A stretch of 47,036 nt of DNA from a virus (IMGVR_UViG_3300007609_001205:104834-151869), one strand, 5' to 3'; positions 8,554 through 47,036 are shown, numbered from the stretch's first letter. The notes: generated by a model not told the origin, from the letters alone. A program made the numbers and translations.

Positions 8554-10019
8554 ACATTATCCCTTGGTAAAAACTCAACCTGACCATCATCATATTTCAG
8601 CCTTAAAACAGTTCTTATCTGCTTTAACTTACGTTTTTTCTTATAAACACCATCACCCTCACGACTACCCCTCTTATTAGTATTTCCCTCAATAGTCTCT
8701 ATTTTATTATTACTTACTTGTGATATGGCAATACCAATATGACTGAACGTAAATATGATTATATCACCTGGTAATATTTTATCAAAGGGTGGTTTAATGA
8801 TTTCCACATATTTTGAATTTTTCCTTGCCCAATTTTCAAAATCATATGCACCGGCAGTCCTCGGAAGTGTAAATGAATATCTAACACCATCCATATTAGA
8901 AACTGCCTTGAAACAAAAGCAAACAAATGCTGCACACCAAGGCCACCCCTTTGGATCGATTCCCGGTGTTTTTACAGGTGTTAACCAAGTAGAATCTTGA
9001 TAAACATAAACTTCCGGACCAGTGTTTGAATTTTTGGGGTCTTCTTTGACTCCTTCTTGGGTTAATGCAATTTCTACAACCTTCTTTGCAAAATCACTTA
9101 CTACACCTGATGATGGTCCTTCATTATCATCCACATACACAGGGTTACTTTTTGGTAATTTCTTTGTTGGGTCCAATAGAATGTTTGCCGCATCATTGTC
9201 ATCAATTGCAGGTGAGAATGATGGCACTTCATCATCAAAGTCAATAGAAACATCACTTACCTTTTTAGTAGATTTCCAATCATCTCCCGATACTTGATCA
9301 CTCTTTCTTTTCTTGGACATTTTATCGGGAACTGTTTTGATTTCTGAGTTACTATTAACATATACATTATTCGAAAGAAATTTGGGATCCCTTAATTCAA
9401 AGTATTCATTCAAAATATTCACAAACCCCGGTGTCGGTTGCACAGGAGCACTTTGGTTTCCCATATATGGTCCGGCACCAAGTCCAGCCAATTCCTTCAC
9501 AAACTTATCCATCCAATTCATAAAATTCGTACCAAGTATTGCTTGTTGGTCAGCATTTGCATCACCAAGTGACAACTTAGAATAATTATCCTTTAAATTT
9601 ATGTCTATGGTTGTATCTTGTATATTTATATTGTGAAACTTATAGTCAAGTATAAGACCTTCATCATCATTGGAATATATTTGTGTCTTGTGATCAAATA
9701 CAATAGATTTCATCGATCGATAACCACCTTCTGATAAATCCTTTAACTTATTTTCCAAATTCATATTATAATGGTCTGAATAAATATATTCAGGTTTATA
9801 TATGTTCCCATTATCAAAAACACAAGTTACCACTTTCCCGACTTCGGGTGCGTTGAATTCATTTCCGTTTATATCTTTCCATGGAGATGCCCATGGAATA
9901 TCTTCGGTGTCGATTTCTTCAAAAACATTCACTATACGAACTTTACACCTACCAAGTCTTTTGGGGTCATTATTATCCTCTACAATCCCAATATATGTTT
10001 TACTTCCATCAATGTACAT
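8550..10019 (-). CDS. baseplate hub/spike protein, gp5-like OB-fold plus C-terminal CHAP amidase
   Basis: YIGIVEDNNDPKRLGRCKVR / IPWASP (gp5/VgrG OB-fold); PWCAAFV, FSHIGIA, TIEGNT (CHAP). Confidence 0.85.
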   Translation of the reverse strand: MYIDGSKTYIGIVEDNNDPKRLGRCKVRIVNVFEEIDTEDIPWASPWKDINGNEFNAPEVGKVVTCVFDNGNIYKPEYIYSDHYNMNLENKLKDLSEGGYRSMKSIVFDHKTQIYSNDDEGLILDYKFHNINIQDTTIDINLKDNYSKLSLGDANADQQAILGTNFMNWMDKFVKELAGLGAGPYMGNQSAPVQPTPGFVNILNEYFELRDPKFLSNNVYVNSNSEIKTVPDKMSKKRKSDQVSGDDWKSTKKVSDVSIDFDDEVPSFSPAIDDNDAANILLDPTKKLPKSNPVYVDDNEGPSSGVVSDFAKKVVEIALTQEGVKEDPKNSNTGPEVYVYQDSTWLTPVKTPGIDPKGWPWCAAFVCFCFKAVSNMDGVRYSFTLPRTAGAYDFENWARKNSKYVEIIKPPFDKILPGDIIIFTFSHIGIAISQVSNNKIETIEGNTNKRGSREGDGVYKKKRKLKQIRTVLRLKYDDGQVEFLPRDNV

Positions 10020-10037
10020 AAATTATATATGCTTATT

Positions 10038-11789
10038 TTATCCACCGGTTATAAACCCACTTAAAGTATCCCCACCAAAATCTCTGAGTGAATTCCTAAC
10101 GTCAAAAAAGAACTGATTTGAAATACCATCAACAATCTGACTTTGATAAACATTTGTCGGTTCAGACATTCTACCAATACCAAAGGAATTCCTTATTTGA
10201 TCAATCGAATCATTCACCAAAGAAAATTGTGTATTCAGTTGCCTCTGTGCTTCTTGTAATGCTGCATTTTTAAGACCATTCAATAACCTCGATGCTGCCG
10301 AACTTCTTTGATTATTTGCAAAATCATCAAGTGTTGCACCGGGTGTTATATTATCCCCCTCTGGACCCATCACAGACCCATTTGGTGAAACATCTTTTAA
10401 CTTGAAATTTCCAGTGTTTGTTATAAACCCGGCTCTTTGTGGTATATCAACCGATGTTCCAAGTGGTTGTGGATTTACTTGGTGGTTATTAACTTCCTTA
10501 AACACTTCTTGACCCGGATTATAACGAATGAATGCCATGTCTGCATTTTTATATGCAAGTTGTATCTCCCATTTGTCAGTTACCTCTGGTTTCGATCCTA
10601 AATCGATTGAATCTGGATGTGTTGCCTTACTGAAAAAGAATTGGCATTCATATACCTTATACTCATATTTTGATAGATTTGATCTCAGAATCTCCAATTT
10701 GGACAAGTTCTCTTCAACACTTGCCCCCTTTTTAACACTTACAAAATTTCTAAGTTCAGAGATATTCAATTTCATATCAAATCTGAGAAGGTTCTCAGGA
10801 CATATCGATTTACCACGTAACCTAGACCAATACAATGATTTATAAAGTGTGTATAATGTACCCATATTAAGTGTTGTGTCCTCATAAAAACCCAATGTAA
10901 GGAGATCATTCATATAATCGACAAATGCATTATGCTTCCCGGGTGTATTACTTTCTGATAGTTTATCAAGACCACCAATGGATTTAACGTAATAGAATTT
11001 ATTTTTTCGGAACTCTTCTGAATTAAAATCCGTCTTGAATATGGAATTGGGTTCTATACCATTAAAGGTAACCCTTCTTGAAAATCTAAAATATTTGGAA
11101 AGTTCTCTTACAAACTCGTAATATATTTCAATTCTTGAAGAAACCTCATCATCCAACCCATTTGACCATTCACCTAAAAGAAATTCTTCCAATGCACCAT
11201 TTAACAATGGGGATGCATCAACATCAATAACAATATCAAACCCAAAATACACAGGGTCTTCGTTATCGTGTGGTGTTATATAATCACCTTCATCATAATT
11301 CCAAATACGTGATTTACTTTGTTCGAATGAATTTAAGTTAGTGGCAGTTTCGAATGACTGCAAAACAGTTTCTGCATTATCATAATCGAGTTTGAATTTG
11401 AAATCACTAGTAGACACATCACCATATTTGTCATACTCACCATCACTACTTGCAAGTGATTTATAAATATCATTGGTGTTTCTCATTTCGGATGTGGAAG
11501 GTGGTATGACTTTAAATTCAGGATCACCACCTGTCCAATCAGAACTCACTGTTTTATAATACTCAACCGGTGTAAACCCAGGCCGTTGATTTGAAGTTTT
11601 GTCTATGAGTGTTTCTTTCAAAGAAACCATTGCCTTACCATCAGGTGGTCCAGTTCTATTATTAACATGTTTGTTGGATGGGTGACCGGGGTCGTTAAAG
11701 CCGGGTAATTGACCCGCCCTTGGGTTACCCAGTGCATCATTCAATTGATCACCTGCATTTTGAAAAAATCTATTTAGACCATCTGCCAT
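10038..11789 (-). CDS. probable virion structural (baseplate/tail) protein
   Basis: 583 aa, adjacent to the gp5-like gene, late-motif upstream; family not confidently recognised. Confidence 0.5.
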   Translation of the reverse strand: MADGLNRFFQNAGDQLNDALGNPRAGQLPGFNDPGHPSNKHVNNRTGPPDGKAMVSLKETLIDKTSNQRPGFTPVEYYKTVSSDWTGGDPEFKVIPPSTSEMRNTNDIYKSLASSDGEYDKYGDVSTSDFKFKLDYDNAETVLQSFETATNLNSFEQSKSRIWNYDEGDYITPHDNEDPVYFGFDIVIDVDASPLLNGALEEFLLGEWSNGLDDEVSSRIEIYYEFVRELSKYFRFSRRVTFNGIEPNSIFKTDFNSEEFRKNKFYYVKSIGGLDKLSESNTPGKHNAFVDYMNDLLTLGFYEDTTLNMGTLYTLYKSLYWSRLRGKSICPENLLRFDMKLNISELRNFVSVKKGASVEENLSKLEILRSNLSKYEYKVYECQFFFSKATHPDSIDLGSKPEVTDKWEIQLAYKNADMAFIRYNPGQEVFKEVNNHQVNPQPLGTSVDIPQRAGFITNTGNFKLKDVSPNGSVMGPEGDNITPGATLDDFANNQRSSAASRLLNGLKNAALQEAQRQLNTQFSLVNDSIDQIRNSFGIGRMSEPTNVYQSQIVDGISNQFFFDVRNSLRDFGGDTLSGFITGG

Positions 11790-38243: not shown

Positions 38244-38481
38244 TATTAACAATCTACCAGTCTATGTCGATAAGTATATGGAAAAAAATAAGATACATAT
38301 TGGTCGGAAAGGTAACCAAAAACAATTTGTGATTTGTGGGCAGGAAGTAGGTGAAATATTAAAAAACTTCCTTATGTGTAAAAGAAGAAATTCAGTTATA
38401 GATAATGTTCTCGATGAACTCATCCCACATAAGATAGACATACTAAGTCAATTTGGAAATATTTTCCAACGAAACTCATAA
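38227..38481 (+). CDS. hypothetical protein
   Basis: ORF track. Confidence 0.55.
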   Translation: MEKICDINNLPVYVDKYMEKNKIHIGRKGNQKQFVICGQEVGEILKNFLMCKRRNSVIDNVLDELIPHKIDILSQFGNIFQRNS

Positions 38482-38511
38482 TTGCTGAATTGTAAAAAAA
38501 ATTAAAATAAT

Positions 38512-38542
38512 TTTGGAGTTTAACAAAACTTTATTAACTTTG
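38512..38542 (+). promoter_or_regulatory. Bacteroidota primary-sigma promoter for the leader/tRNA array
   Basis: TTTG (38512-38515) - 19 nt - TAACTTTG (38535-38542). Confidence 0.75.
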
Positions 38543-38594
38543 TACTCTATAACGAAAAAGGAAGAAATAAAACTTAATATATAACAACAAGAAA

Positions 38595-38702
38595 ATGAAT
38601 ACATTAGTATCTAATATCAAGAATGGAAAATGCTTTAAATGGCATTTTAAATCATACCTATCCGGTTTTGATAATAGGATTACTATGTATGACTTTCTAT
38701 GA
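38595..38702 (+). CDS. attenuator leader peptide 1 (35 aa, MNTLVSNIKNGKCFKWHFKSYLSGFDNRITMYDFL)
   Basis: Read manually; consecutive TTT AAA TGG CAT TTT AAA at 38634-38651. Confidence 0.75.
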   Translation: MNTLVSNIKNGKCFKWHFKSYLSGFDNRITMYDFL

Positions 38703-38742
38703 TAAGATAGAATAACACACAAAGGTAATTTCAAAGCCGGAT
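38660..38742 (+). promoter_or_regulatory. antiterminator helix
   Basis: ATCCGGTTTTGA (38660-38671) pairs 12/12 (one G-U) with TCAAAGCCGGAT (38731-38742), which overlaps the terminator 5' arm. Confidence 0.75.
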
Positions 38743-38766
38743 TTCGAAAGAGATCCGGCTTTTTTT
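38733..38766 (+). terminator. intrinsic terminator directly upstream of the tRNA array
   Basis: AAAGCCGGATTTC-GAAA-GAGATCCGGCTTT plus T-run. Confidence 0.9.
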
Positions 38767-38775
38767 ATTTTACAT

Positions 38776-38848
38776 GGTGGATGTAGCTCAGGGGAAGAGT
38801 GTCGGTTTGTGAAACCGAAGGTCGGGATTTCGAAACTCCTCATCCACA
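38776..38848 (+). tRNA. tRNA-His(GTG), G-1 opposite A73, T-stem mismatch
   Basis: Cloverleaf folded by hand; anticodon 38809-38811; no encoded CCA. Confidence 0.8.
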
Positions 38849-38850
38849 CA

Positions 38851-38921
38851 TAGTCAGAACTGATGTGGTGCAGTGCCCCTGAGAAACAGGGGGATTTGAG
38901 GGTTCGATTCCCTCCTGACAA
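38851..38921 (+). tRNA. atypical tRNA-like element (nominal GAA anticodon, no U33)
   Basis: Perfect T-arm GAGGG-TTCGATT-CCCTC; acceptor core GTCAG/CTGAC; anticodon arm CCCCT-GAGAAAC-AGGGG. Confidence 0.5.
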
Positions 38922-38926
38922 AAATT

Positions 38927-39000
38927 GGCTTCGTAACTCAGCCGGGTAGAGTGACAGACTGAAAATCTGTTGGTCATGGGTTCAAATCCCATCGAAGCCA
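38927..39000 (+). tRNA. tRNA-Phe(GAA)
   Basis: Canonical cloverleaf; ACAGA-CTGAAAA-TCTGT. Confidence 0.95.
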
Positions 39001-39009
39001 CAAACATAC

Positions 39010-39082
39010 GATCTCGTAGCTCAGTTGGTAGAGCATTCCCCTTTTAAGGGAAGGGTCGTGGGTTCGAGGCCTACCGGGATCA
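39010..39082 (+). tRNA. tRNA-Lys(TTT)
   Basis: Canonical cloverleaf; TTCCC-CTTTTAA-GGGAA. Confidence 0.95.
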
Positions 39083-39091
39083 CTAAAATAT

Positions 39092-39183
39092 GGTGATTGT
39101 AGCTGAATGGTATGTAGTACCGTAAGGGAACAAGCACTTGGTTGTGACCCAAGAGGATGCCGGTTCGAGTCCGGTCTTTCACC
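39092..39183 (+). tRNA. tRNA-His(GTG) with G-1:C73 and greatly expanded D-loop
   Basis: CTTGG-TTGTGAC-CCAAG; 28-nt D-loop (39105-39132); two T-T mismatches in acceptor stem. Confidence 0.8.
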
Positions 39184-39191
39184 CAAAATAT

Positions 39192-39265
39192 GGCACCGTA
39201 ACTCAGTCTGGTAGAGTGGTCCCCTGAAGAGGGAAGGGTCGTTGGTTCAAATCCAACCGGTGCCA
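39192..39265 (+). tRNA. tRNA-Phe(GAA), G37 variant
   Basis: GTCCC-CTGAAGA-GGGAA; full acceptor and T arms. Confidence 0.9.
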
Positions 39266-39280
39266 CAGAAAATATTAAAT

Positions 39281-39355
39281 GCAGGAGTAGCTCAGCCTGG
39301 TCAGAGCAACGGTCTCCAAAACCGTGTGTCGGTGGTTCGAATCCATCCTCCTGTG
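39281..39355 (+). tRNA. tRNA-Trp(CCA)
   Basis: ACGGT-CTCCAAA-ACCGT; canonical arms. Confidence 0.93.
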
Positions 39356-39369
39356 CAAAAAAAAATAGA

Positions 39370-39411
39370 ATGAGAATGAAAACTAAACGGAAATATAAAC
39401 AGTTTAGTTAG
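39370..39411 (+). CDS. Lys-rich leader peptide 2 (MRMKTKRKYKQFS)
   Basis: 4 AAA codons in 13; stop overlaps hairpin 39405-39434; precedes two tRNA-Lys genes and lysS. Confidence 0.55.
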   Translation: MRMKTKRKYKQFS

Positions 39412-39439
39412 ACTTGATGAAAAGAGTCTAACTACATTA

Positions 39440-39532
39440 GGCTCTGTCGTATAGCGGCCATTACACCTCCCTTTTAAGGAGATGAGGTAATCAAGTCCTC
39501 GACCGTGGGTTCGAGTCCCACCAGAGCCACCA
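39440..39532 (+). tRNA. tRNA-Lys(TTT) with long variable arm and encoded CCA
   Basis: CCTCC-CTTTTAA-GGAGA; 22-nt variable region with GAGG/CCTC stem; ACCA end. Confidence 0.85.
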
Positions 39533-39616
39533 GCGTTTGTGGGTGAGTGGTCGAAACCAATAGTCTCTTAAACTATCTCCGTAAGGACATCGCAGGTCCG
39601 AATCCTGCCAAACGCA
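39533..39616 (+). tRNA. tRNA with Lys(CTT) anticodon on a class II (Leu/Ser/Tyr-like) body
   Basis: ATAGT-CTCTTAA-ACTAT; D-arm GGT-GAGTGGTCGAA-ACC; variable arm CTCCGTAAGGACATC; T-loop TCCGAAT; A73. Confidence 0.85.
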
Positions 39617-39669
39617 CATCGAACCCATAATGTGTATATTAAGGCACTTACATTCACAATATATACATT

Positions 39670-40617
39670 ATGGAATATTATGAAGAAATACAAAAATACT
39701 ATGATGATGGACATACAATTGCGGAAACATGTTTAAAATTCAATATAAGTGAGAGTAAAGCATATCGGGCATCAAAAAGAGGACAACTAAAATTTAGAAG
39801 TCTGAGTGAAGCGATGAAAATATCATGTAAAAAGAAACCTAGAAAGCATACAGATGAAACAAAAGAAAAACTAAGTAAGATACGTAAAGAATATCTTCGA
39901 AAAAATCCAAATAAAGTCCCATACCTATTAAACCACAGTAGTAAAGGATCGTATCCGGAAAAATACTTTACTGAGGTATTTAAAAGGGAAGGATTAGATG
40001 TTGTTAAAAAATTTAGAGTTTCTTTATATGAACTTGACTTTTCTATACCACATAAAAAGATAGATATTGAAATAGATGGGAATCAACATTATGATGATAT
40101 TAAAATAGTTGAAAGTGATATTAGGAGAAATGAATTTCTCGAAACAGAAGGATGGGATGTAATACGTATAAATTGGTCAAACTATCAAAAATTAAATTAT
40201 AAAGAGAAAAATATGTTCATAAATGACCTCAAATCTTATGTAAATAATTTAAGTGAAATCAAACCAACCATAACCACTAAACCAAGTATGAGAGGAAAAA
40301 ATTTATGTGAATGTGGTGGATTAAAAACAAAAAAATCTAAACTATGTAAAATATGTAGGCACGAAAACTCTAAAAAAAGAGATATTAAATCTTATAAATC
40401 AGAACGTAGAAAAAAATATAAATGCAATTCTTGTGGGAATAAATGTACAAATAAAAATAAACGATGTCGTAAATGTTACGAGATTGATAATAGAAAGGTT
40501 ACCGACCGACCAAGCAAAGAATCACTCATAAAAGATATTGAAAACATAGGATATTCTGCAACGGGTCGAAAGTATGGTGTTAGTGATAATACTATACGAA
40601 AATGGATTAAGAATTAA
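39670..40617 (+). mobile_element. free-standing homing endonuclease-like gene (NUMOD3-like + Vsr/DUF559 nuclease + Zn ribbons + HTH)
   Basis: KHTDETKEKLSKIRK; ELDF..IEIDGNQH..D..RNEFLE..GWDVIRI; CECG, CKIC, CNSC, CRKC; ATGRKYGVSDNTIRKW. Confidence 0.8.
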
Positions 40618-40632
40618 TTAAAATCACAAATA

Positions 40633-41832
40633 ATGGAAACACTAAATTTTAGAATTTTAAACATCAGATTGCACGGTAGGTCAGCCTTTATGGATGTTCT
40701 AACCAACGGTGAAAACTTACAGTGTTATATAAACTCACAAGTTGAAAACTTCACCGAGATAACAGAACTACCAAATGGTTCTCACCTTGGCTGTCGTGGA
40801 GAATACTTCACAACAAGAACAGGACACTACACATTCAGAATACTTGAAGCAGACATTCTGAATATTCCCAACAGACCATTACCTGTTGTTCAAAATGATG
40901 GTGAAACACTGTATAACATAACAACTGATAGAGAAGATATCCGAAGAAGAAGATATCTGAACACTATACTCAATCCAAATGAAAGAGATATATTTGTTAC
41001 TCGATCAAGACTTATCTCTTTGATAAGAAACTTCTATAATGACAATGGTTATATGGAGGTAGAAACACCTATCTTACAACCAGTATATGGTGGTGCAGAG
41101 GCAACTCCATTCACTACACATTTCGAATCACTTGATATGGATTGTTATATGAGAATTGCACCTGAATTGTATCTTAGAAGAATGATCATTGGTGGTTATG
41201 ATAGAGTTTTCGAGATAGGTAGAAATTTTCGAAATGAAGGGATTTCTTCTCGACACAATCCAGAATTCACTGTTATGGAATCATATACTGCATATGAGGA
41301 TTATAACTTCAGTATGGACATGGTTGAAAACATTCTTTTGGGAATTCATAATGAATTTGGAACCGTTACATACAATGGGAATGAAATAGATTTCTCAAAT
41401 GTATCAAGAATATCATTCGTGGAATCAATTGAAAGATACTATGGTGAAACAGAAAGCCTTTCAGATATTGAATTGAATGAGTTGTTTGAAACACACGTTG
41501 AGCCAAATTTGATACAACCAACAATGGTATATGATTACCCATCAAGTATAAGTCCATTGGCACAAGTGAGATCGGACAATGAAAACATTGCCGAAAGATT
41601 TGAACTTTTCATCTCAGGTATGGAAATTGCCAATGCCTATTCAGAACTTAACGATATAACCAGACACGTTGAGAATATTGGAGACGATGACCAAGATTTC
41701 ATTGATGCACTATCATATGGTATGCCACCAACAACCGGTATCGGTATCGGTATCGATAGATTGGTTATGATACTTACTGATAGAACAATCAGAGATGTTA
41801 TCTATTTCCCTATGATGAGAAACCGTTCCTGA
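40633..41832 (+). CDS. lysS: class II lysyl-tRNA synthetase, compact and lysine-free
   Basis: OB-fold N-terminus; EVETPIL, GGAEATPF, RIAPELYL, FRNEG..HNPEF, E.ANAYSELND, YGMPP..GIGIDRLVM. Confidence 0.95.
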   Translation: METLNFRILNIRLHGRSAFMDVLTNGENLQCYINSQVENFTEITELPNGSHLGCRGEYFTTRTGHYTFRILEADILNIPNRPLPVVQNDGETLYNITTDREDIRRRRYLNTILNPNERDIFVTRSRLISLIRNFYNDNGYMEVETPILQPVYGGAEATPFTTHFESLDMDCYMRIAPELYLRRMIIGGYDRVFEIGRNFRNEGISSRHNPEFTVMESYTAYEDYNFSMDMVENILLGIHNEFGTVTYNGNEIDFSNVSRISFVESIERYYGETESLSDIELNELFETHVEPNLIQPTMVYDYPSSISPLAQVRSDNENIAERFELFISGMEIANAYSELNDITRHVENIGDDDQDFIDALSYGMPPTTGIGIGIDRLVMILTDRTIRDVIYFPMMRNRS

Positions 41833-41850
41833 TATTTGAATATATACTGA

Positions 41851-42651
41851 ATGAAGCATATCCGAGAATTTAAAAACCAAGAAACCTTCATAGAATGGTT
41901 AAGTAGAAAGAGTGGAATACAAATAACAGAAGGCGATCCAAGATTCGGGTTGTTTGGGGCAGTTTTCAATTTAGGGGATAAGAGAGTCATCAGACTTTCA
42001 AGAACCCAACACTTAACTTATAAACATATGTTAAATAAAAACATACCGGGTGCTGTAAGGGTATACTCAATGGGCAAAATTAAAATACCCAACAGATATT
42101 TGGACCATTTACCGACTAACATCAGATGTGTGAAATTTGGAATGGATTATAAAATGAAAAGTAATTTTGATAAATTATGCACACGCAATGGTTATGTCTA
42201 TTATACTGTAATGGAAAAGGTTGATATACCCAAGGACCTAGTGTTGAACATAGATCACATATCGGACTCCATTAAACACATGGAAAATGATGAACAACAC
42301 GAAACGGCATATCTTGGTCTGAAACATATATATGATTGCATATATTGGGCAGACGAAGAAGAGGATTATATGAATGTAGTACAAGACCTTTATGATACGA
42401 TATCCAATGATTTCGGACCAAGACAGGCCAAGAAGTTACACATACTAATGGCAGATATAGTGGCATTGTTCAAAAAATTAGTTAAGAATTTTAATTGGGA
42501 TGATATACATTCCGGACAATTTGGATATAACACTAAGGGAGAACTTATTGCATTTGATCTCGATGGTGCAAAATTTGAAGGAGATGGTAGAATCAAAACA
42601 GTTATTAAGGAATGTTTGAACGAAACCAATCAAGTAAAGTCAAAACATTGA
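41851..42651 (+). CDS. protein-kinase-like fold protein
   Basis: GLFGAVF Gly-loop, DDIHSGQ catalytic loop, IAFDLD. Confidence 0.65.
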   Translation: MKHIREFKNQETFIEWLSRKSGIQITEGDPRFGLFGAVFNLGDKRVIRLSRTQHLTYKHMLNKNIPGAVRVYSMGKIKIPNRYLDHLPTNIRCVKFGMDYKMKSNFDKLCTRNGYVYYTVMEKVDIPKDLVLNIDHISDSIKHMENDEQHETAYLGLKHIYDCIYWADEEEDYMNVVQDLYDTISNDFGPRQAKKLHILMADIVALFKKLVKNFNWDDIHSGQFGYNTKGELIAFDLDGAKFEGDGRIKTVIKECLNETNQVKSKH

Positions 42652-42735
42652 ATTATTCACATAGAATACAAAGGAAACTTAAAATTAAAAAGAAATAAAC
42701 CCAAACACTCACCGCAATTGCTCATATATAATAAT

Positions 42736-43917
42736 ATGAAATATATCTTAACATTACTTCTTACACTACCATTCATTTCAATTTCACAATCCGTGACGAT
42801 AGATGGTGGATTTATACGAATGACCGGTGATTCCAGGATCATAATAGTCAATGGTGGTCCGGATGCATTCAGTGTAACATCAAATGGTGGTGGTATAATA
42901 ATGGAAGATGAAAATTCTGTTGTTCAATGGAATGATGTGAACTCAATCGGTACATATATGATACCATTTGCATCTTCCTCAGGTGATACTATTCCATTTA
43001 CTTATGAAATAAGTGATGTTGGTGTGGGTGGTGATAACATAACATTCAATTCACATGAGGTTGCACCGGATAACTTTCCCATGCCAACCGGAGTCCTTCA
43101 TATAACAGATGACTTTGGAACTGACAATGGACCAAGTGTAATAGACCGTTACTGGATAATAACACCAAATGGATACACGACAAAACCAAGGGGGACTTAT
43201 ACATTCACATACGATGACAATGATTGGAATGACCCAACCAATTTCATAAATGAGGCAAACTTAACTGCCCAACGATATAATTCAGATGAAGATAAATGGT
43301 TAGATTGGTTATATGGACCAACTACGAATACCATCACTAACCAACTTACCATAACAATAGCCAACCAATTGGATCAATATTCGGTATGGACATTATCCGA
43401 TATAAATAACCCATTGCCAATAGAACTTGTACGTTTCACGGTTGATTGTGAAAGTAGTGTTGTTACTTGGGTAACTGTAACTGAAACCAATACAAGCCAT
43501 TATATCATACAAGGTTCTGATGATGCATATGAATGGAACGACATTAGAACAGTAGAGGCTGCCGGAAATTCAAATCAAATTTTAAAATACAGTGAAAAGG
43601 TTGATCCATATGGATATTATCGATTACACCAATTTGATGTTGATGGTAGTAACAAATACTCTGACATTCTTTATGGATGTCCGGATTTCGAATCTATAAA
43701 TGTAATTGTTTTCCCCAACCCAAATGATGGAAGGTTTTTCATAAACCATCCGGGTATATATAATATTGAAATATATGATATGGTCGGTAAATTGATATTC
43801 AGTGAAAAAACAGACCAAAGGTTTTATGATATGACACACTTACCGAATGGAAGATATGTTGTGAACATACATAATGAAATAAATATACACACATTCAATA
43901 TGATAAAAATAGATTGA
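42736..43917 (+). CDS. secreted protein with T9SS type A C-terminal sorting domain
   Basis: Start moved to 42736 (MKYILTLLL signal peptide); PLPIELVRF; VFPNP...IYDMVGK...LPNGRYVV. Confidence 0.85.
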   Translation: MKYILTLLLTLPFISISQSVTIDGGFIRMTGDSRIIIVNGGPDAFSVTSNGGGIIMEDENSVVQWNDVNSIGTYMIPFASSSGDTIPFTYEISDVGVGGDNITFNSHEVAPDNFPMPTGVLHITDDFGTDNGPSVIDRYWIITPNGYTTKPRGTYTFTYDDNDWNDPTNFINEANLTAQRYNSDEDKWLDWLYGPTTNTITNQLTITIANQLDQYSVWTLSDINNPLPIELVRFTVDCESSVVTWVTVTETNTSHYIIQGSDDAYEWNDIRTVEAAGNSNQILKYSEKVDPYGYYRLHQFDVDGSNKYSDILYGCPDFESINVIVFPNPNDGRFFINHPGIYNIEIYDMVGKLIFSEKTDQRFYDMTHLPNGRYVVNIHNEINIHTFNMIKID

Positions 43918-43921
43918 TAAT

Positions 43922-45304
43922 ATGAAAAAAATACTAACATTCACACTCTTACTCATAACTACACATTCATTCTCACAGAACTATGTGGGTATCAGTAATG
44001 ATCAAACATTCACACCTGATACAACACTACATATTGACGGTTCATTGAAAGTCGGTCGTACTAATAGTTCCATTGGGAATATTTATTTGGCGAACAAATT
44101 ATATGATATGGACAATTCAAATTATTTTATAGATCCTGGTGCAGCAAGTCGGGTGAATGGCTTGGATTTGGACATAGGGAGCACAACAACTAATAGTGTA
44201 TATTTTTCCAATAATACAAGAACCGGCATTTACCAACCCACAATCCATAGTATAGGATTTTCTGTGGATGGAACTGAAGCAATTAGAATAACAGATAATA
44301 GAAATTTAGAATTGAATGGTAATGATATAAGAGGCGTAGAACAACTTCATTTCACAAATGGGGAAGTGTATATTGATGGTAATAATGGAGATATTGGACA
44401 AGTTATCAAATCTGATGGGGATATGGTGTATTGGGATGACATCTCCCCAATAAAAGCTGAGTCTATTTTTGAAACTCTTTCAGGTAGTGGGGGGGTTCTG
44501 TGGTCACATCCCGATGGGATTTATGTTTATATCGCCCCTGATGATAAATTAATACGAGTTGATAATACAGTATCCACTGATAACTGGAGTGTTTTTATAA
44601 GTGGTAGATCCACTGATTCATCTGATGAAATTGTTACAATATCTGATAATATTTCTAGTGGGAATAATGTCGAGTTGGATATATCAGGGTCGCCATGTGG
44701 CACAGAAGAGGTTTGGATAAATGAGATTCACTATGATAATTCTGGAACTGATACATTAGAGGGTGTTGAAATTGCCGGTGTTACCGGGACAGATTTATCG
44801 GGTTGGACCATTTACTCATACAGTGGGGCAGATGGGTTAATTTATTCACAAACAAGCCTAAATGGAATAATACCAAATGAATCAAATGGAATTGGTGCAA
44901 TGTGGTTTGGAATACTCGGACTACAAAATGGTTCTCCAGATGGACTTGTTTTACATGACGGAACAAGTGTTGTTATGTTTATCAGTTATGAGGGTACATT
45001 CACTGCAAATGATAGTGTTGCGGTTGGAATGACATCAACCGATATTGGTGTTTCCCAGTCACCTAATGAAGACATAGATCAAACTTTACAATTAACCGGT
45101 TCAGGTCTGTCTTATTCAGATTTCACTTGGTCTGTTCAAAGCAACAGGAGTGATGGAAACTTGAACGATGGACAGAATATAAACACATGTAATAGAAATG
45201 GTGGGTTTACTATACATGCTGGTAATAATACATCCGGTATTGGGTTTACTCTACACTGCACATTTACTGATAACACATTCATTGGTTTGGTACAACACTG
45301 GTAA
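43922..45304 (+). CDS. secreted beta-rich protein with lamin-tail-like domain
   Basis: Signal peptide MKKILTFTLLLITTHSFSQ; WINEIHYDNSGTD..EGVEIAG..GTDLSGW. Confidence 0.7.
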   Translation: MKKILTFTLLLITTHSFSQNYVGISNDQTFTPDTTLHIDGSLKVGRTNSSIGNIYLANKLYDMDNSNYFIDPGAASRVNGLDLDIGSTTTNSVYFSNNTRTGIYQPTIHSIGFSVDGTEAIRITDNRNLELNGNDIRGVEQLHFTNGEVYIDGNNGDIGQVIKSDGDMVYWDDISPIKAESIFETLSGSGGVLWSHPDGIYVYIAPDDKLIRVDNTVSTDNWSVFISGRSTDSSDEIVTISDNISSGNNVELDISGSPCGTEEVWINEIHYDNSGTDTLEGVEIAGVTGTDLSGWTIYSYSGADGLIYSQTSLNGIIPNESNGIGAMWFGILGLQNGSPDGLVLHDGTSVVMFISYEGTFTANDSVAVGMTSTDIGVSQSPNEDIDQTLQLTGSGLSYSDFTWSVQSNRSDGNLNDGQNINTCNRNGGFTIHAGNNTSGIGFTLHCTFTDNTFIGLVQHW

Positions 45305-45350
45305 ATATGCATCCCCTATATTAAATACATAGAGAAATTATTTATTATAT

Positions 45351-45735
45351 ATGCCGGGAATAATATCACCACACACTAATTTAGGATAAGTGCCTTTACC
45401 TGCCACGAGAAGTTCAAATTTAATATTAGACCAAAACGGGAAATTAACCATATTGAGAAGTAATGGTTCGTCTGAACAAATAAGTGCAACTGGTGGAGTA
45501 TATGGATCTGGGCCAATTGGACCAACCAGACCTAAAAGGAGCAACTGGTTCTAACGGAATTTCCACCCTATTATATGAAATGGCATATGAAACATTCTAC
45601 AATGGATTTTCATTTTCGACATTAACACCACCATATTACAAGATAACAGGTTTTCAAACAGACGGATTCATTGGTTATCGTATTACCAACTTCTTAAACA
45701 TTTTGGTATATAAAAAACATATCATATATTTGTAA
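45351..45735 (+). pseudogene. decayed collagen-repeat (fibre-like) gene
   Basis: MPGIISPHTNLG*VPLP...GPIGPT, then frameshift into KGATGSNGISTLL... Confidence 0.5.
45702..45732 (+). promoter_or_regulatory. Bacteroidota primary-sigma promoter for the His leader/hisS
   Basis: TTTG (45702-45705) - 19 nt - TATATTTG (45725-45732). Confidence 0.75.
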
Positions 45736-45736
45736 T

Positions 45737-45781
45737 ATGAACATGAGCACACATACCCATCAAAGAACACATTATATGTGA
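45737..45781 (+). CDS. His-rich attenuator leader peptide 3 (MNMSTHTHQRTHYM)
   Basis: 3 CAT codons (45752, 45758, 45770); alternative start at 45743. Confidence 0.8.
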   Translation: MNMSTHTHQRTHYM

Positions 45782-45820
45782 TCGGGAAAGTTGTGTTAAG
45801 TATAATTAGCAAACCCGATT
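45780..45820 (+). promoter_or_regulatory. antiterminator helix overlapping the leader stop
   Basis: GATCGGG (45780-45786) pairs with CCCGATT (45814-45820). Confidence 0.7.
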
Positions 45821-45835
45821 TATTCGGGTTTTTTT
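45811..45835 (+). terminator. intrinsic terminator upstream of hisS
   Basis: AAACCCGA-TTTAT-TCGGGTTT followed by T-run. Confidence 0.9.
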
Positions 45836-45860
45836 ATGTCCAAAAATTAAATATTAGAAA

Positions 45861-46517
45861 ATGAAAAACGAAATTAAATTAGAATCAACATACAAGGGTA
45901 CACGAATATTATGTGGGGAAATTGCAACCTATAAAAGAAAACTAATAAATGAAATGGTTGATAAAGTCACAGAGAAAGGATTCACAGAAGTAATGATACC
46001 TATAATCCAAAAACAAGACACTTTCCTTTCGAAAGTCGGTGATGAAAACCAAAAGATGATGTACTCGTTCAAAGACCGTGGGAATAGGGATCTCTGCCTT
46101 GCACCCGAATACACTGCCGTTGTTCAAAAATTGGCGAAAGAGGAATTTATATTTGGTAAAGGGAAACCTATGCCCGATGTAAAGTTATTTTACATTTCAG
46201 AATGTTTCCGAGGAGAGAACTCACAGAAAGGGAGATACCGACAATTTACACAATTTGGAGTGGAAATATTAAACCCCACAAAAGATTATTCTGACTACCT
46301 TTTGAATCTTGCAACTGAACTTATTTCTATGGTTACTCCGGATTATGAATATGATAAAGAGACAAGGAGGGGTCTTGATTATTATACCGAGGGAAAGGGG
46401 TTTGAAGTATCTTGCACTGAACTAGGGGCACAGAAACAGATATGTGGTGGTGGATCGTATGATGGTGGGATTGGATTTGCATTGGGTATTGATAGACTTA
46501 TATTAATTAAAGATTGA
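45861..46517 (+). CDS. hisS: minimal histidyl-tRNA synthetase (catalytic core only), histidine-free
   Basis: KGTR, motif 1 FTEVMIPII, LAPEYT, motif 2 FRGE..QKGRYRQFTQ, RGLDYY, GGGSYDG, motif 3 GFALGIDRL; no anticodon-binding domain. Confidence 0.88.
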   Translation: MKNEIKLESTYKGTRILCGEIATYKRKLINEMVDKVTEKGFTEVMIPIIQKQDTFLSKVGDENQKMMYSFKDRGNRDLCLAPEYTAVVQKLAKEEFIFGKGKPMPDVKLFYISECFRGENSQKGRYRQFTQFGVEILNPTKDYSDYLLNLATELISMVTPDYEYDKETRRGLDYYTEGKGFEVSCTELGAQKQICGGGSYDGGIGFALGIDRLILIKD

Positions 46518-46563
46518 ACACTGTGTTTACACCAATCGATTTTAATATATACAACAAATAAAC

Positions 46564-47036
46564 ATGAATAATATGAGATATTTACAGAATTTCAACAACT
46601 TAAATGACCCAAGACAAATCCACAGAACCCGTGTGGATCAAATATGTGAGATGAGCATCCCCGACCCAGACCACGGTGATATGAAATTGAGTGTATTTCC
46701 GTTTGAGAATACAGGAGATTGGGTAAATCTACCAGAGGGTTTTAAAAAATGGGAAGGAACACTTAATGAAATACTTAAACATGTCCCATTACAGGAAGGT
46801 GCAAACACACACTATGTAACAATCGATTCAAAGTTCTTCACACAGGATGATTACCTACGAAGGGAAGGAATCCACATAGATGGCAATTTCTGTGTTGATC
46901 CTGAGTTTTCCTTTCAGAATTTATCCGAAAAGGCATCTTGGGGTGGTGCAAGTCCAAGACCAAGATGGGGTGGTGTTAATCTGAAAGAAGTTGATGATGC
47001 AGAAGAAGAGGAAGAAACAAAGGCATCTTGGGGTGG
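46564..47036 (+). CDS. partial ORF (runs off window), 2OG-Fe(II) oxygenase-like
   Basis: Read manually: MNNMRYLQNF...LRREGIHIDGNF (HxD); TAATATATA at 46543. Confidence 0.55.
   Translation, partial: MNNMRYLQNFNNLNDPRQIHRTRVDQICEMSIPDPDHGDMKLSVFPFENTGDWVNLPEGFKKWEGTLNEILKHVPLQEGANTHYVTIDSKFFTQDDYLRREGIHIDGNFCVDPEFSFQNLSEKASWGGASPRPRWGGVNLKEVDDAEEEEETKASWG
46929..47036 (+). repeat. 18-nt direct repeat (KASWGG)
   Basis: AAAGGCATCTTGGGGTGG at 46929-46946 and 47019-47036. Confidence 0.85.

Follow-up and report, generated by a model that had tools for sequence, protein, structure and literature searches.

Leader ORFs, tRNA Genes, and Synthetase Genes at a Viral Locus

We analyzed a 47,036-nucleotide stretch of viral DNA (IMGVR_UViG_3300007609_001205:104834-151869; hereafter, the window), which forms the final 47 kb of one 151,869-bp viral contig with a GC content of 33.5%. 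Positions 38512 to 46517 hold three small open reading frames (ORFs), leaders 1 to 3, which precede, respectively, an array of tRNA genes, two tRNA-Lys genes followed by a lysyl-tRNA synthetase (LysRS) gene, and a gene for a small histidyl-tRNA synthetase (mini-HisRS). These are ORFs of 13 to 35 codons that follow promoters, and they are conserved as ORFs in relatives. An original prediction made from this DNA described each leader as enriched in the amino acids served by the genes behind it. Indeed, leader 1 carries the run F-K-W-H-F-K, leader 2 has four Lys in 13 residues, and leader 3 has three His in 14. The features of the three modules are as follows.

38512..38542, + strand: promoter of module 1, Bacteroidota-type, TTTG-N19-TAACTTTG (pattern search)
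38577-38583, + strand: ATATATA box in the 5′ untranslated region of module 1
38595..38702, + strand: leader ORF 1, 35 codons, peptide MNTLVSNIKNGKCFKWHFKSYLSGFDNRITMYDFL, preceding the His/Phe/Lys/Trp tRNA array
38733..38769, + strand: intrinsic terminator of module 1, 13-bp stem (38733-38762), GAAA loop, and T-run
38777..39355, + strand: tRNA array His(GUG), Phe-like, Phe(GAA), Lys(UUU), His-like with an insertion, Phe(GAA), Trp(CCA) (ARAGORN, Rfam)
39370..39411, + strand: leader ORF 2, MRMKTKRKYKQFS, four AAA codons in 13 residues, preceding two tRNA-Lys genes and then LysRS
39405..39444, + strand: hairpin after leader 2, 3′ arm able to pair with the first bases of the next tRNA-Lys
39440..39616, + strand: two tRNA-Lys genes, UUU and CUU, with long variable arms (39440-39529 and 39533-39616; ARAGORN, Rfam)
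40633..41832, + strand: class II LysRS, 399 aa, no Lys, no Trp (PF00152, E value 2e-75)
45702..45732, + strand: promoter of module 3, Bacteroidota-type (pattern search, with a predicted start-site position)
45737..45781, + strand: leader ORF 3, MNMSTHTHQRTHYM, three His in 14 residues, second ATG at 45743, preceding mini-HisRS
45811..45838, + strand: intrinsic terminator before hisS, 8-bp stem (45811-45831) and T-run
45861..46517, + strand: mini-HisRS, 218 aa, catalytic core only, no His

The nine tRNA genes, all located at 38777-39616, are the sole tRNA genes of the 152-kb contig; the ninth was overlooked by ARAGORN and added by Rfam. Across 38300-47036, the Rfam scan returned tRNAs only, with no known leader family and no match to a T-box riboswitch at E ≤ 1. 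The promoter pattern TTTG-N19-TAnnTTTG occurs four times in the 47 kb, and two of these matches lie directly before leaders 1 and 3. Four matches alone are not above chance; those promoters are conserved in relatives, with that of module 1 present in the loci L002, L006, and L093.

The contig is a fragment, scored by CheckV as 25% complete, and the whole genome would thus measure roughly 600 kb. The sequences most closely related to it are uncultured marine contigs, 230 to 656 kb in length, that include the published megaphage Mar_Mega_1 (OU342829.1; locus L092 in our comparison). We infer that the contig derives from a Mar_Mega-like megaphage of Bacteroidota, the host assignment resting on a type IX secretion sorting tail in one of the phage proteins and on the TTTG-N19-TAnnTTTG promoters. 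The phage collection searched contained no match of near-identical DNA, and only one close relative was recovered among 54 IMG/VR LysRS loci. Among the relatives, L002 (230 kb) is syntenic with the window and encodes a 79% identical LysRS, and G001 (IMGVR_UViG_3300049793_000366) is a whole genome of 507,910 bp, 97% complete, with 68 tRNAs.

Attenuator Architecture of Leaders 1 and 3

Judged from its sequence, leader 1 has the complete four-region architecture of an attenuator. The control codons F-K-W-H-F-K (38634-38651, within the core KCFKWHFKS) are placed between region 1 (∼38612-38627) and region 2, the antiterminator strand (38659-38672). In the minimum-free-energy fold of the full-length leader, regions 1 and 2 are paired and the 13-bp terminator is formed. 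Before the 3′ arm of the terminator exists, region 2 pairs instead with the terminator 5′ arm, giving a 12-bp 2:3 antiterminator helix of −18.1 kcal/mol, compared to −7.0 kcal/mol for shuffled sequences (p = 0.003). A ribosome stalled at 38634-38651 would be expected to disrupt the 1:2 pairing and leave region 2 free.

The core KCFKWHFKS is kept in L002 and L103 with synonymous AAA>AAG change (one in L002). One pair of the terminator stem is G:C in the window, A:U in L002, and C:G in L103, and the region 2/3 contact ATCCGG/CCGGAT becomes ACCGGT/ACCGGT with region 4 changed to match. These compensatory changes tie together regions 2, 3, and 4 across the three loci. The leaders of L006, L090, and L093 encode H/K/F/W-rich peptides from different DNA, and the H/K/F/W-rich peptides of more distant relatives read SHKHFSKSNKWFSH, THKHFNKFHWFS, and KHKHFSKSSFWFK. 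Because this composition is kept by way of different DNA, selection appears to act on the codons and not on an RNA hairpin alone. A pattern based on the leader 1 core, run against metagenome and viral contigs, recovered one true homologue, L103; ten further matches fell inside unrelated genes and were rejected as chance occurrences.

Leader 3 has a promoter, a terminator, and a putative antiterminator. Region 2 spans 45781-45793, starting on the last base of the stop codon, and the homologue in L002 reads MKTNTHTHHMTH. The module 3 promoter ends 4 nt before the first ATG of the leader, and thus the transcript is probably nearly leaderless. That leaders 1 and 3 each combine a promoter with a strong terminator, as had been proposed, is borne out by our analysis; the antiterminator that had also been proposed for both is well supported at leader 1 and marginal at leader 3 (p = 0.05). 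Many leaders (in the window, L002, G001, L090, and L093) open with MKT or MNT (ATG AAA ACA or ATG AAT ACA), a shared A-rich start that may favor initiation without a Shine-Dalgarno sequence in Bacteroidota.

A LysRS Without Lysine

The window LysRS contains no Lys in 399 residues, compared to a window mean of 8.5% (binomial p about 4e-15). Among the contig ORFs of at least 150 aa, the LysRS is the only one to lack a common residue. Its sequence places it with the class II LysRS enzymes of the LysS/LysU type: it has the class II core (PF00152), its best Protein Data Bank matches are solved class II LysRS structures (E about 1e-89), and motifs 2 and 3 are retained, with FRNEG and GIGIDRL aligned. 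It is without about 60 N-terminal residues, and its match to PF01336, the N-terminal oligonucleotide/oligosaccharide-binding fold, is weak.

The absence of Lys is a property of the family. The short phage LysRS family comprises 57 members, down to 52% identity, 47 of which are Lys-free, while the 63 cellular LysRS from the same match list (P0058-P0120) contain 2 to 11% Lys. The phage enzymes carry substitutions at positions occupied by Lys in 45 to 63 of the 63 cellular enzymes; specifically, the Lys of the cellular LYLKR motif is invariant in the cellular enzymes (63/63), and the phage enzymes have Arg in its place (46/46). The phage clade had 100/100 support in a maximum-likelihood tree. In the same tree, two sublineages with about 5% Lys are nested, on long branches, within Lys-free clades. 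In both of these the LysRS gene abuts or overlaps its upstream gene and there is no leader, while a Lys leader is present at nine Lys-free loci with sufficient upstream DNA (the window, L002, L004, L006, L090-L093, and L107). Thus, Lys appears to have been regained where the leader was lost, and the purge tracks leader presence.

Beyond the clade, other LysRS clusters are also Lys-free. The Lys-free LysRS of L107 is preceded by a sigma-70-type promoter, a leader containing K, and a terminator. At L109 (3522-4970), a cellular contig of 53% GC encodes a LysRS with a single Lys; lysA follows it, and the LysRS gene lies divergent from dapA-dapB-aspartokinase, a bacterial lysine-supply cluster. Rfam recorded no known RNA element upstream of the K-free or K-poor LysRS genes of L107-L109. 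The Lys-free and Lys-poor enzymes of L107 and L109 suggest that the principle may extend beyond phages. A distant 479-kb phage of 44% GC, L057 (IMGVR_UViG_3300044957_000763, 8582-11191), encodes a LysRS that is 37% identical and has only one Lys in its core, with three tRNA-Lys genes upstream and a small ORF, MSIRLKRNKRNY; the same design may have arisen there separately.

A Mini-HisRS Without Histidine

The mini-HisRS has no His in 218 residues. Taken on the window alone this is weak evidence, because six other window ORFs are also His-free, and we rejected it as significant at that level. At the level of the family the absence is decisive. His was counted in the best 120 of 1,896 homologous matches and was absent from 117 of these, with one His in each of the other three. 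For both enzymes, the absence of the cognate residue described in the original prediction is confirmed in the window, and most homologues share it.

The mini-HisRS keeps class II motifs 1 to 3 and the His-specific RGLDYY and GGGxYD peptides. It is without the insertion domain and the C-terminal anticodon-binding domain (∼135-248 and beyond 320 in Staphylococcus aureus HisRS) and is therefore a catalytic-core-only relative. An AlphaFold model (mean predicted local distance difference test score 79, predicted template modeling score 0.81) had HisRS catalytic domains as its best matches, including 1kmn, 1kmm, and 2el9 at template modeling scores of 0.7 to 0.8. A regulatory role like that of HisZ is unlikely, because the gene stands in the context of a His leader and tRNA-His. 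From their sequences and, for the mini-HisRS, the model, it is plausible that the LysRS and the mini-HisRS are both functional enzymes.

Leaders Match the Genes They Precede Across Relatives

In relatives, the leaders match downstream genes for many more amino acids. A fourth module in L002 has the leader MKTIINISSSSSSSSRGNSNLIRRC, with a SSSSSSSSR stretch and with TCA, TCT, TCG, TCC, and AGT codons, followed by a terminator, tRNA-Arg, four tRNA-Ser, and a seryl-tRNA synthetase (SerRS) with one Ser in 417 residues. In Mar_Mega_1, NNNNNNNN precedes an asparaginyl enzyme (AsnRS) and KYKQLKSKK precedes LysRS. Matching leaders in G001 precede almost every tRNA array; examples from arrays and synthetase genes (here and below named by amino acid, as for LysRS) are as follows.

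TLTVNMNLNNTMTTVVNITL: before Leu/Asn/Thr/Arg/Ile/Val/Met tRNAs
QQVQQQQ: before four tRNA-Gln
ISRSRSSRS: before Ser/Arg tRNAs and SerRS
YIGYIAEGGYEAG: before Glu/Tyr/Gly/Ile/Ala tRNAs
IIII: before IleRS
VVVV: before ValRS
THFHFHF: before a HisRS-PheRS operon
LLLL: before a LeuRS-like gene

Over 27 modules from eight loci, leaders were enriched for the amino-acid set of the genes downstream (Fisher p 7e-39), and none of 20,000 permutations of the leader-to-gene labels in G001 reached the observed score. A strong terminator was present in 22 of the 23 modules examined, and antiterminator complementarity exceeded that of shuffled controls (Fisher p 8e-12). When both strands of G001 were scanned under strict criteria for a promoter, a small ORF, and a terminator, all five matches (5/5) lay before aminoacyl-tRNA synthetase or tRNA genes. 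Leader, terminator, tRNA, and synthetase sets are co-conserved in relatives, as the design would lead one to expect, and show compensatory changes. The scope first drawn for the design, by contrast, was too narrow: in G001 it covers ∼15 amino acids and is not specific to Lys and His.

The same comparisons bear on whether unrelated short ORFs and terminators, with compositional biases arising by chance or drift, could account for the locus. Two observations in the window would be compatible with such a coincidence, namely that a His-free 218-aa protein is unremarkable there and that the four promoter matches are not above chance. The parts, their conservation and covariation, and the match of codons to genes are nevertheless present across the loci compared, with p values of 1e-5 to 1e-39 and with features conserved down to 53% protein identity. 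The comparative data effectively refute a coincidence, to which we assign next to no weight.

Many G001 Synthetases Are Purged of Their Cognate Residues

We scanned G001 without bias for ORFs lacking a common residue. Lys- or Glu-poor large proteins aside, the output consisted of synthetases of the matching type, 13 of which have no more than one cognate residue.

IleRS: cognate residues 0/742
ValRS: 0/509
AspRS: 0/425
ThrRS: 0/346
PheRS: 0/366
TyrRS: 0/359
ProRS: 0/368
AlaRS: 0/240
LysRS: 1/400
AsnRS: 1/392
GlnRS: 1/539
ArgRS: 1/391
GlyRS-like: 1/266

The mini-HisRS of G001, found separately, has no His in 211 residues. One further match of the scan, a 323-aa protein with one Phe, has no Pfam match. 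Several of these synthetases are unusually small: AlaRS has 240 aa (423046-423768), the GlyRS-like enzyme 266 aa (422098-422898), and ThrRS 346 aa (322160-323200). The 509-aa ValRS (396695-398224) is probably missing its editing domain, given its short length, and the 366-aa PheRS (415861-416961) is monomeric with an FDX-ACB domain.

Aminoacyl-adenylates can acylate protein lysines. A cognate residue might be avoided for a reason other than shortage, such as self-modification by the aminoacyl-adenylate or escape from host modification, and self-modification could explain a Lys-free LysRS. The purge extends, however, to the Ile, Val, Asp, Asn, Thr, Phe, Tyr, Pro, Ala, Gly, Gln, Arg, and His enzymes, most of which have lost an unreactive side chain, and it tracks leader presence. 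We rejected Lys-specific chemistry as the cause of the Lys-free LysRS, given that the cognate residue, in most cases an unreactive one, is also lost from 12 other synthetases, and we consider non-shortage explanations as a group very unlikely.

Leader 2 and the Long-Arm tRNA-Lys Genes

Leader 2 differs from the other two. Hairpins are present after it, with no U-tract terminator, and K-rich homologues without a U-tract occur in L002, L006 (two copies), and L093. The Lys leaders of L090, L091, L092, L004, and L107 have canonical terminators. In the lineage of the window, leader 2 is thus, as far as its sequence indicates, not a classical attenuator or terminator switch. The original prediction had treated all three leaders as stalling sensors for the expression of replacement tRNAs and synthetases; comparison with relatives supports the core of that proposal, and its extension to leader 2 as a classical attenuator did not hold.

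The 3′ arm of the hairpin after leader 2 shows complementarity to the 5′ end of the tRNA-Lys that follows (p = 0.025 in the window, 0.001 in L002, and 0.004 in one L006 copy; Fisher p 1.6e-5 over five loci), and equivalent hairpins follow the terminator-less Lys leaders of L002 (8826-8875) and L006 (9612-9655). We hold loosely the view that this hairpin may be a translation-sensitive switch on tRNA-Lys folding or processing. Applied to all of the leaders, such a view would have the small ORFs act posttranscriptionally, with their translation controlling how the downstream tRNA or mRNA folds, how it is processed, or how stable it is. The missing U-tracts at leader 2 and its homologues in L002, L006, and L093, together with the complementarity to tRNA-Lys, speak for it. 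Set against this, 22 of the 23 other modules carry canonical terminators with competing antiterminators, as do the Lys leaders of the five loci named above in having canonical terminators, and we judge this general explanation improbable.

Long, class II-like variable-arm tRNA-Lys genes (83 to 94 nt) recur beside Lys-free LysRS genes across loci (L002 8869-9060, L090 9564-9984, L093 9629-9981, and L094 2181-2274). The arm sequence varies by locus and the stems are preserved. These tRNAs may be dedicated substrates of the phage LysRS, or they may be nuclease-resistant. In the window, one gene separates them from LysRS:

39670..40617, + strand: homing-endonuclease-like gene (MTES_1575/DUF559, helix-turn-helix, NUMOD3; Pfam), between tRNA-Lys and LysRS

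L090, L093, and L006 do not have this gene, and their tRNA-Lys arrays directly adjoin LysRS, indicating that the ancestral unit consisted of a K leader, a tRNA-Lys array, and LysRS. In the window the endonuclease-like gene carries an ATATATA box of its own.

Proposed Mechanism and Its Alternatives

Taken together, we think it likely that the leaders are ribosome-mediated transcription attenuators that report charged tRNA for individual amino acids and gate the phage tRNA and synthetase genes. Their most likely effect is to increase the supply of phage tRNAs and synthetases during a shortage of a charged tRNA. In the proposed mechanism, host RNA polymerase would initiate at the Bacteroidota-type promoter and produce a transcript with the short leader ORF. 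When the cognate codons are read quickly, the ribosome would reach the stop codon and mask region 2, the terminator would form, and the tRNA and synthetase genes would not be reached. When the ribosome stalls at the F/K/W/H codons of module 1 or the His codons of module 3, region 2 would be free to pair with the terminator 5′ arm, allowing read-through. A synthetase purged of its own amino acid could then be translated without the missing aminoacyl-tRNA, so that the loop would restart from RNA and a cognate-free enzyme. The purge and its link to leader presence are seen directly in the compared loci; the translation of the leaders, stalling, read-through, and the function of the enzymes are what we infer from them.

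Several observations weigh against this mechanism. The module 3 promoter abuts the ATG, and translation would have to start there on a nearly leaderless mRNA; the leader 3 antiterminator, at −8.4 kcal/mol, is marginal; and leader 2 has hairpins and no U-tract terminator. Some leaders are weakly enriched, namely Asp leaders with two to three Asp and a D/E/P leader (p = 0.8). LeuRS-like enzymes keep Leu, the G001 SerRS has 12 Ser, and a GluRS/GlnRS-like paralogue is also unpurged, on which grounds we rejected cognate purging as universal. Finally, the loci compared are related, and the counts are not fully independent events.

The shortage itself could stem from heavy demand by the phage, from starvation, from an attack by the host on tRNAs or synthetases, or from a shut-off imposed by the phage. 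Complete purging suggests that charged tRNA can fall near zero, which would favor attack or shut-off over mild starvation. Host attack is central to a further explanation, in which the attenuators are a counter-defense circuit that detects damage to tRNAs (by nucleases of the PrrC, RloC, or PARIS type) or to synthetases, and the phage answers with resistant tRNAs and its own enzymes. The loss of cleaved tRNAs can be offset by tRNAs of the phage, and phage answers to anticodon nucleases include T4 Pnk/Rnl against PrrC and T5 tRNAs against PARIS or retron systems (for a review, see the citation in PMC13282480). The locus resembles these in that phage-supplied tRNAs would replace depleted host tRNAs; we know of no sensing step and no dedicated cognate-free synthetase in T4- or T5-type systems. 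Purging that is complete, including at invariant residues, suggests near-zero aminoacyl-tRNA, as after attack; the unusual long-arm tRNA-Lys recur beside LysRS; and RNA-ligase genes lie near these loci in relatives. Yet no RNA ligase was found on the contig, which is 25% complete, and the ∼15 amino acids covered are far more than the known nuclease targets. This breadth argues against a response aimed at tRNA-Lys nucleases only, and a specific answer to PrrC, RloC, and PARIS, as first suggested, is not needed. We therefore regard a circuit dedicated to counter-defense as doubtful, if conceivable.

For the Mar_Mega-like phages as a group, we lean somewhat toward a broader form of the attenuation mechanism: a self-restarting aminoacylation system that works per amino acid, in which almost every tRNA array or synthetase is leader-gated, at least 13 synthetases are purged, single aminoacyl-tRNAs fall near zero in infection, and a second, terminator-less switch may gate tRNA-Lys folding.

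Relation to Known Systems

In E. coli pheM-pheST, a leader-peptide attenuator controls phenylalanyl-tRNA synthetase. The modules described here share with it a short ORF rich in cognate codons, a terminator/antiterminator pair, and a synthetase gene, with charged tRNA sensed through ribosome speed in pheM-pheST and, in the proposed mechanism, here. They differ in belonging to a phage, in covering ∼15 amino acids, some with multi-amino-acid leaders, in gating tRNA arrays, and in the enzymes being without the sensed residue. The trpL, hisL, leuL, thrL, and pheL attenuators (pheL is described in PMC3082878) are four-region RNAs with 1:2, 2:3, and 3:4 pairings in which a stalled ribosome frees region 2, and leader 1 shares this architecture; those attenuators control cellular biosynthesis operons, whereas the genes here are for viral tRNA and synthetase supply. 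The T-box riboswitches of Firmicutes likewise couple uncharged tRNA to antitermination and greater expression of synthetase or supply genes. A T-box, however, binds the tRNA directly and requires no translation, whereas the sensor here is predicted to be a translated ORF. Thus, the mechanism would be of a known kind, leader-peptide attenuation as in pheM-pheST, in a more extensive form that takes in a virus, tRNA arrays, multi-amino-acid leaders, and purged synthetases.

A bias similar in direction to the purge has been noted in metabolism: amino-acid biosynthetic enzymes reportedly contain less of their own amino acid, according to Alves and Savageau in 2005, as a modest statistical bias. In both cases proteins that relieve a shortage are poor in the scarce amino acid. 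That bias concerns metabolic enzymes and is modest; here the depletion is complete (0/399, 0/742), affects synthetases, and includes invariant positions.

Huge phages carry up to 67 tRNAs and 15 synthetases per genome (Al-Shayeb et al. 2020, PMC7162821). That study and the Mar_Mega_1 paper (PMC9723777) concern the same kind of phage, and neither mentions leader peptides, attenuators, or the absence of cognate residues; the Mar_Mega_1 paper does not mention synthetases, and a 2026 jumbo-phage review mentions neither synthetases nor attenuation. Our literature search found no prior description of cognate-free synthetases or leader-controlled phage tRNA genes, although most subscription journals were outside its coverage and absence is not proof. 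As far as the literature found allows, this would be the first case of tRNA genes under leader-peptide attenuation.

As to the purpose of the dozens of tRNAs and up to 15 synthetases found in huge phages, our data suggest that phage translation genes are demand-regulated per amino acid, and are not constitutive patches for codon usage. A self-restarting system of the kind outlined above would imply that single aminoacyl-tRNA species are regularly near zero in infection, through host attack on tRNAs or synthetases or a phage-imposed shut-off. Enzymes without Lys, Ile, Val, Gly, Ala, or Pro also suggest that selection for residue-free translation can override residues that are invariant in cells. 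The HisRS of 210 to 218 aa, the AlaRS of 240 aa, and the ValRS probably without an editing domain are natural minimal enzymes, and the long-arm tRNA-Lys with the Lys-free LysRS are a candidate orthogonal tRNA/synthetase pair; minimal enzymes and orthogonal pairs are of interest for synthetic biology and the evolution of the genetic code.

Atypical tRNA Genes and Neighboring Genes

Within the tRNA array of the window, the gene at 38851-38922 is aberrant and Phe(GAA)-like and was called by ARAGORN only. That at 39093-39183 is His(GUG)-like with a 20-nt insertion in the D region and was called by Rfam only (51.7 bits); the corresponding position in L002 is occupied by a tRNA-His of 86 nt. G001 also has an amber-suppressor tRNA (anticodon CUA), labeled Pyl by ARAGORN, at 121630-121701 (L063 2631-2703). 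Between LysRS and HisRS in the window, 42718-43917 encodes a secreted phage protein that ends in a type IX secretion (Por) C-terminal sorting domain, and directly after it 43922-45304 encodes a second Lys-poor protein with a signal-peptide-like start; relative to L002, these two genes are an insertion.

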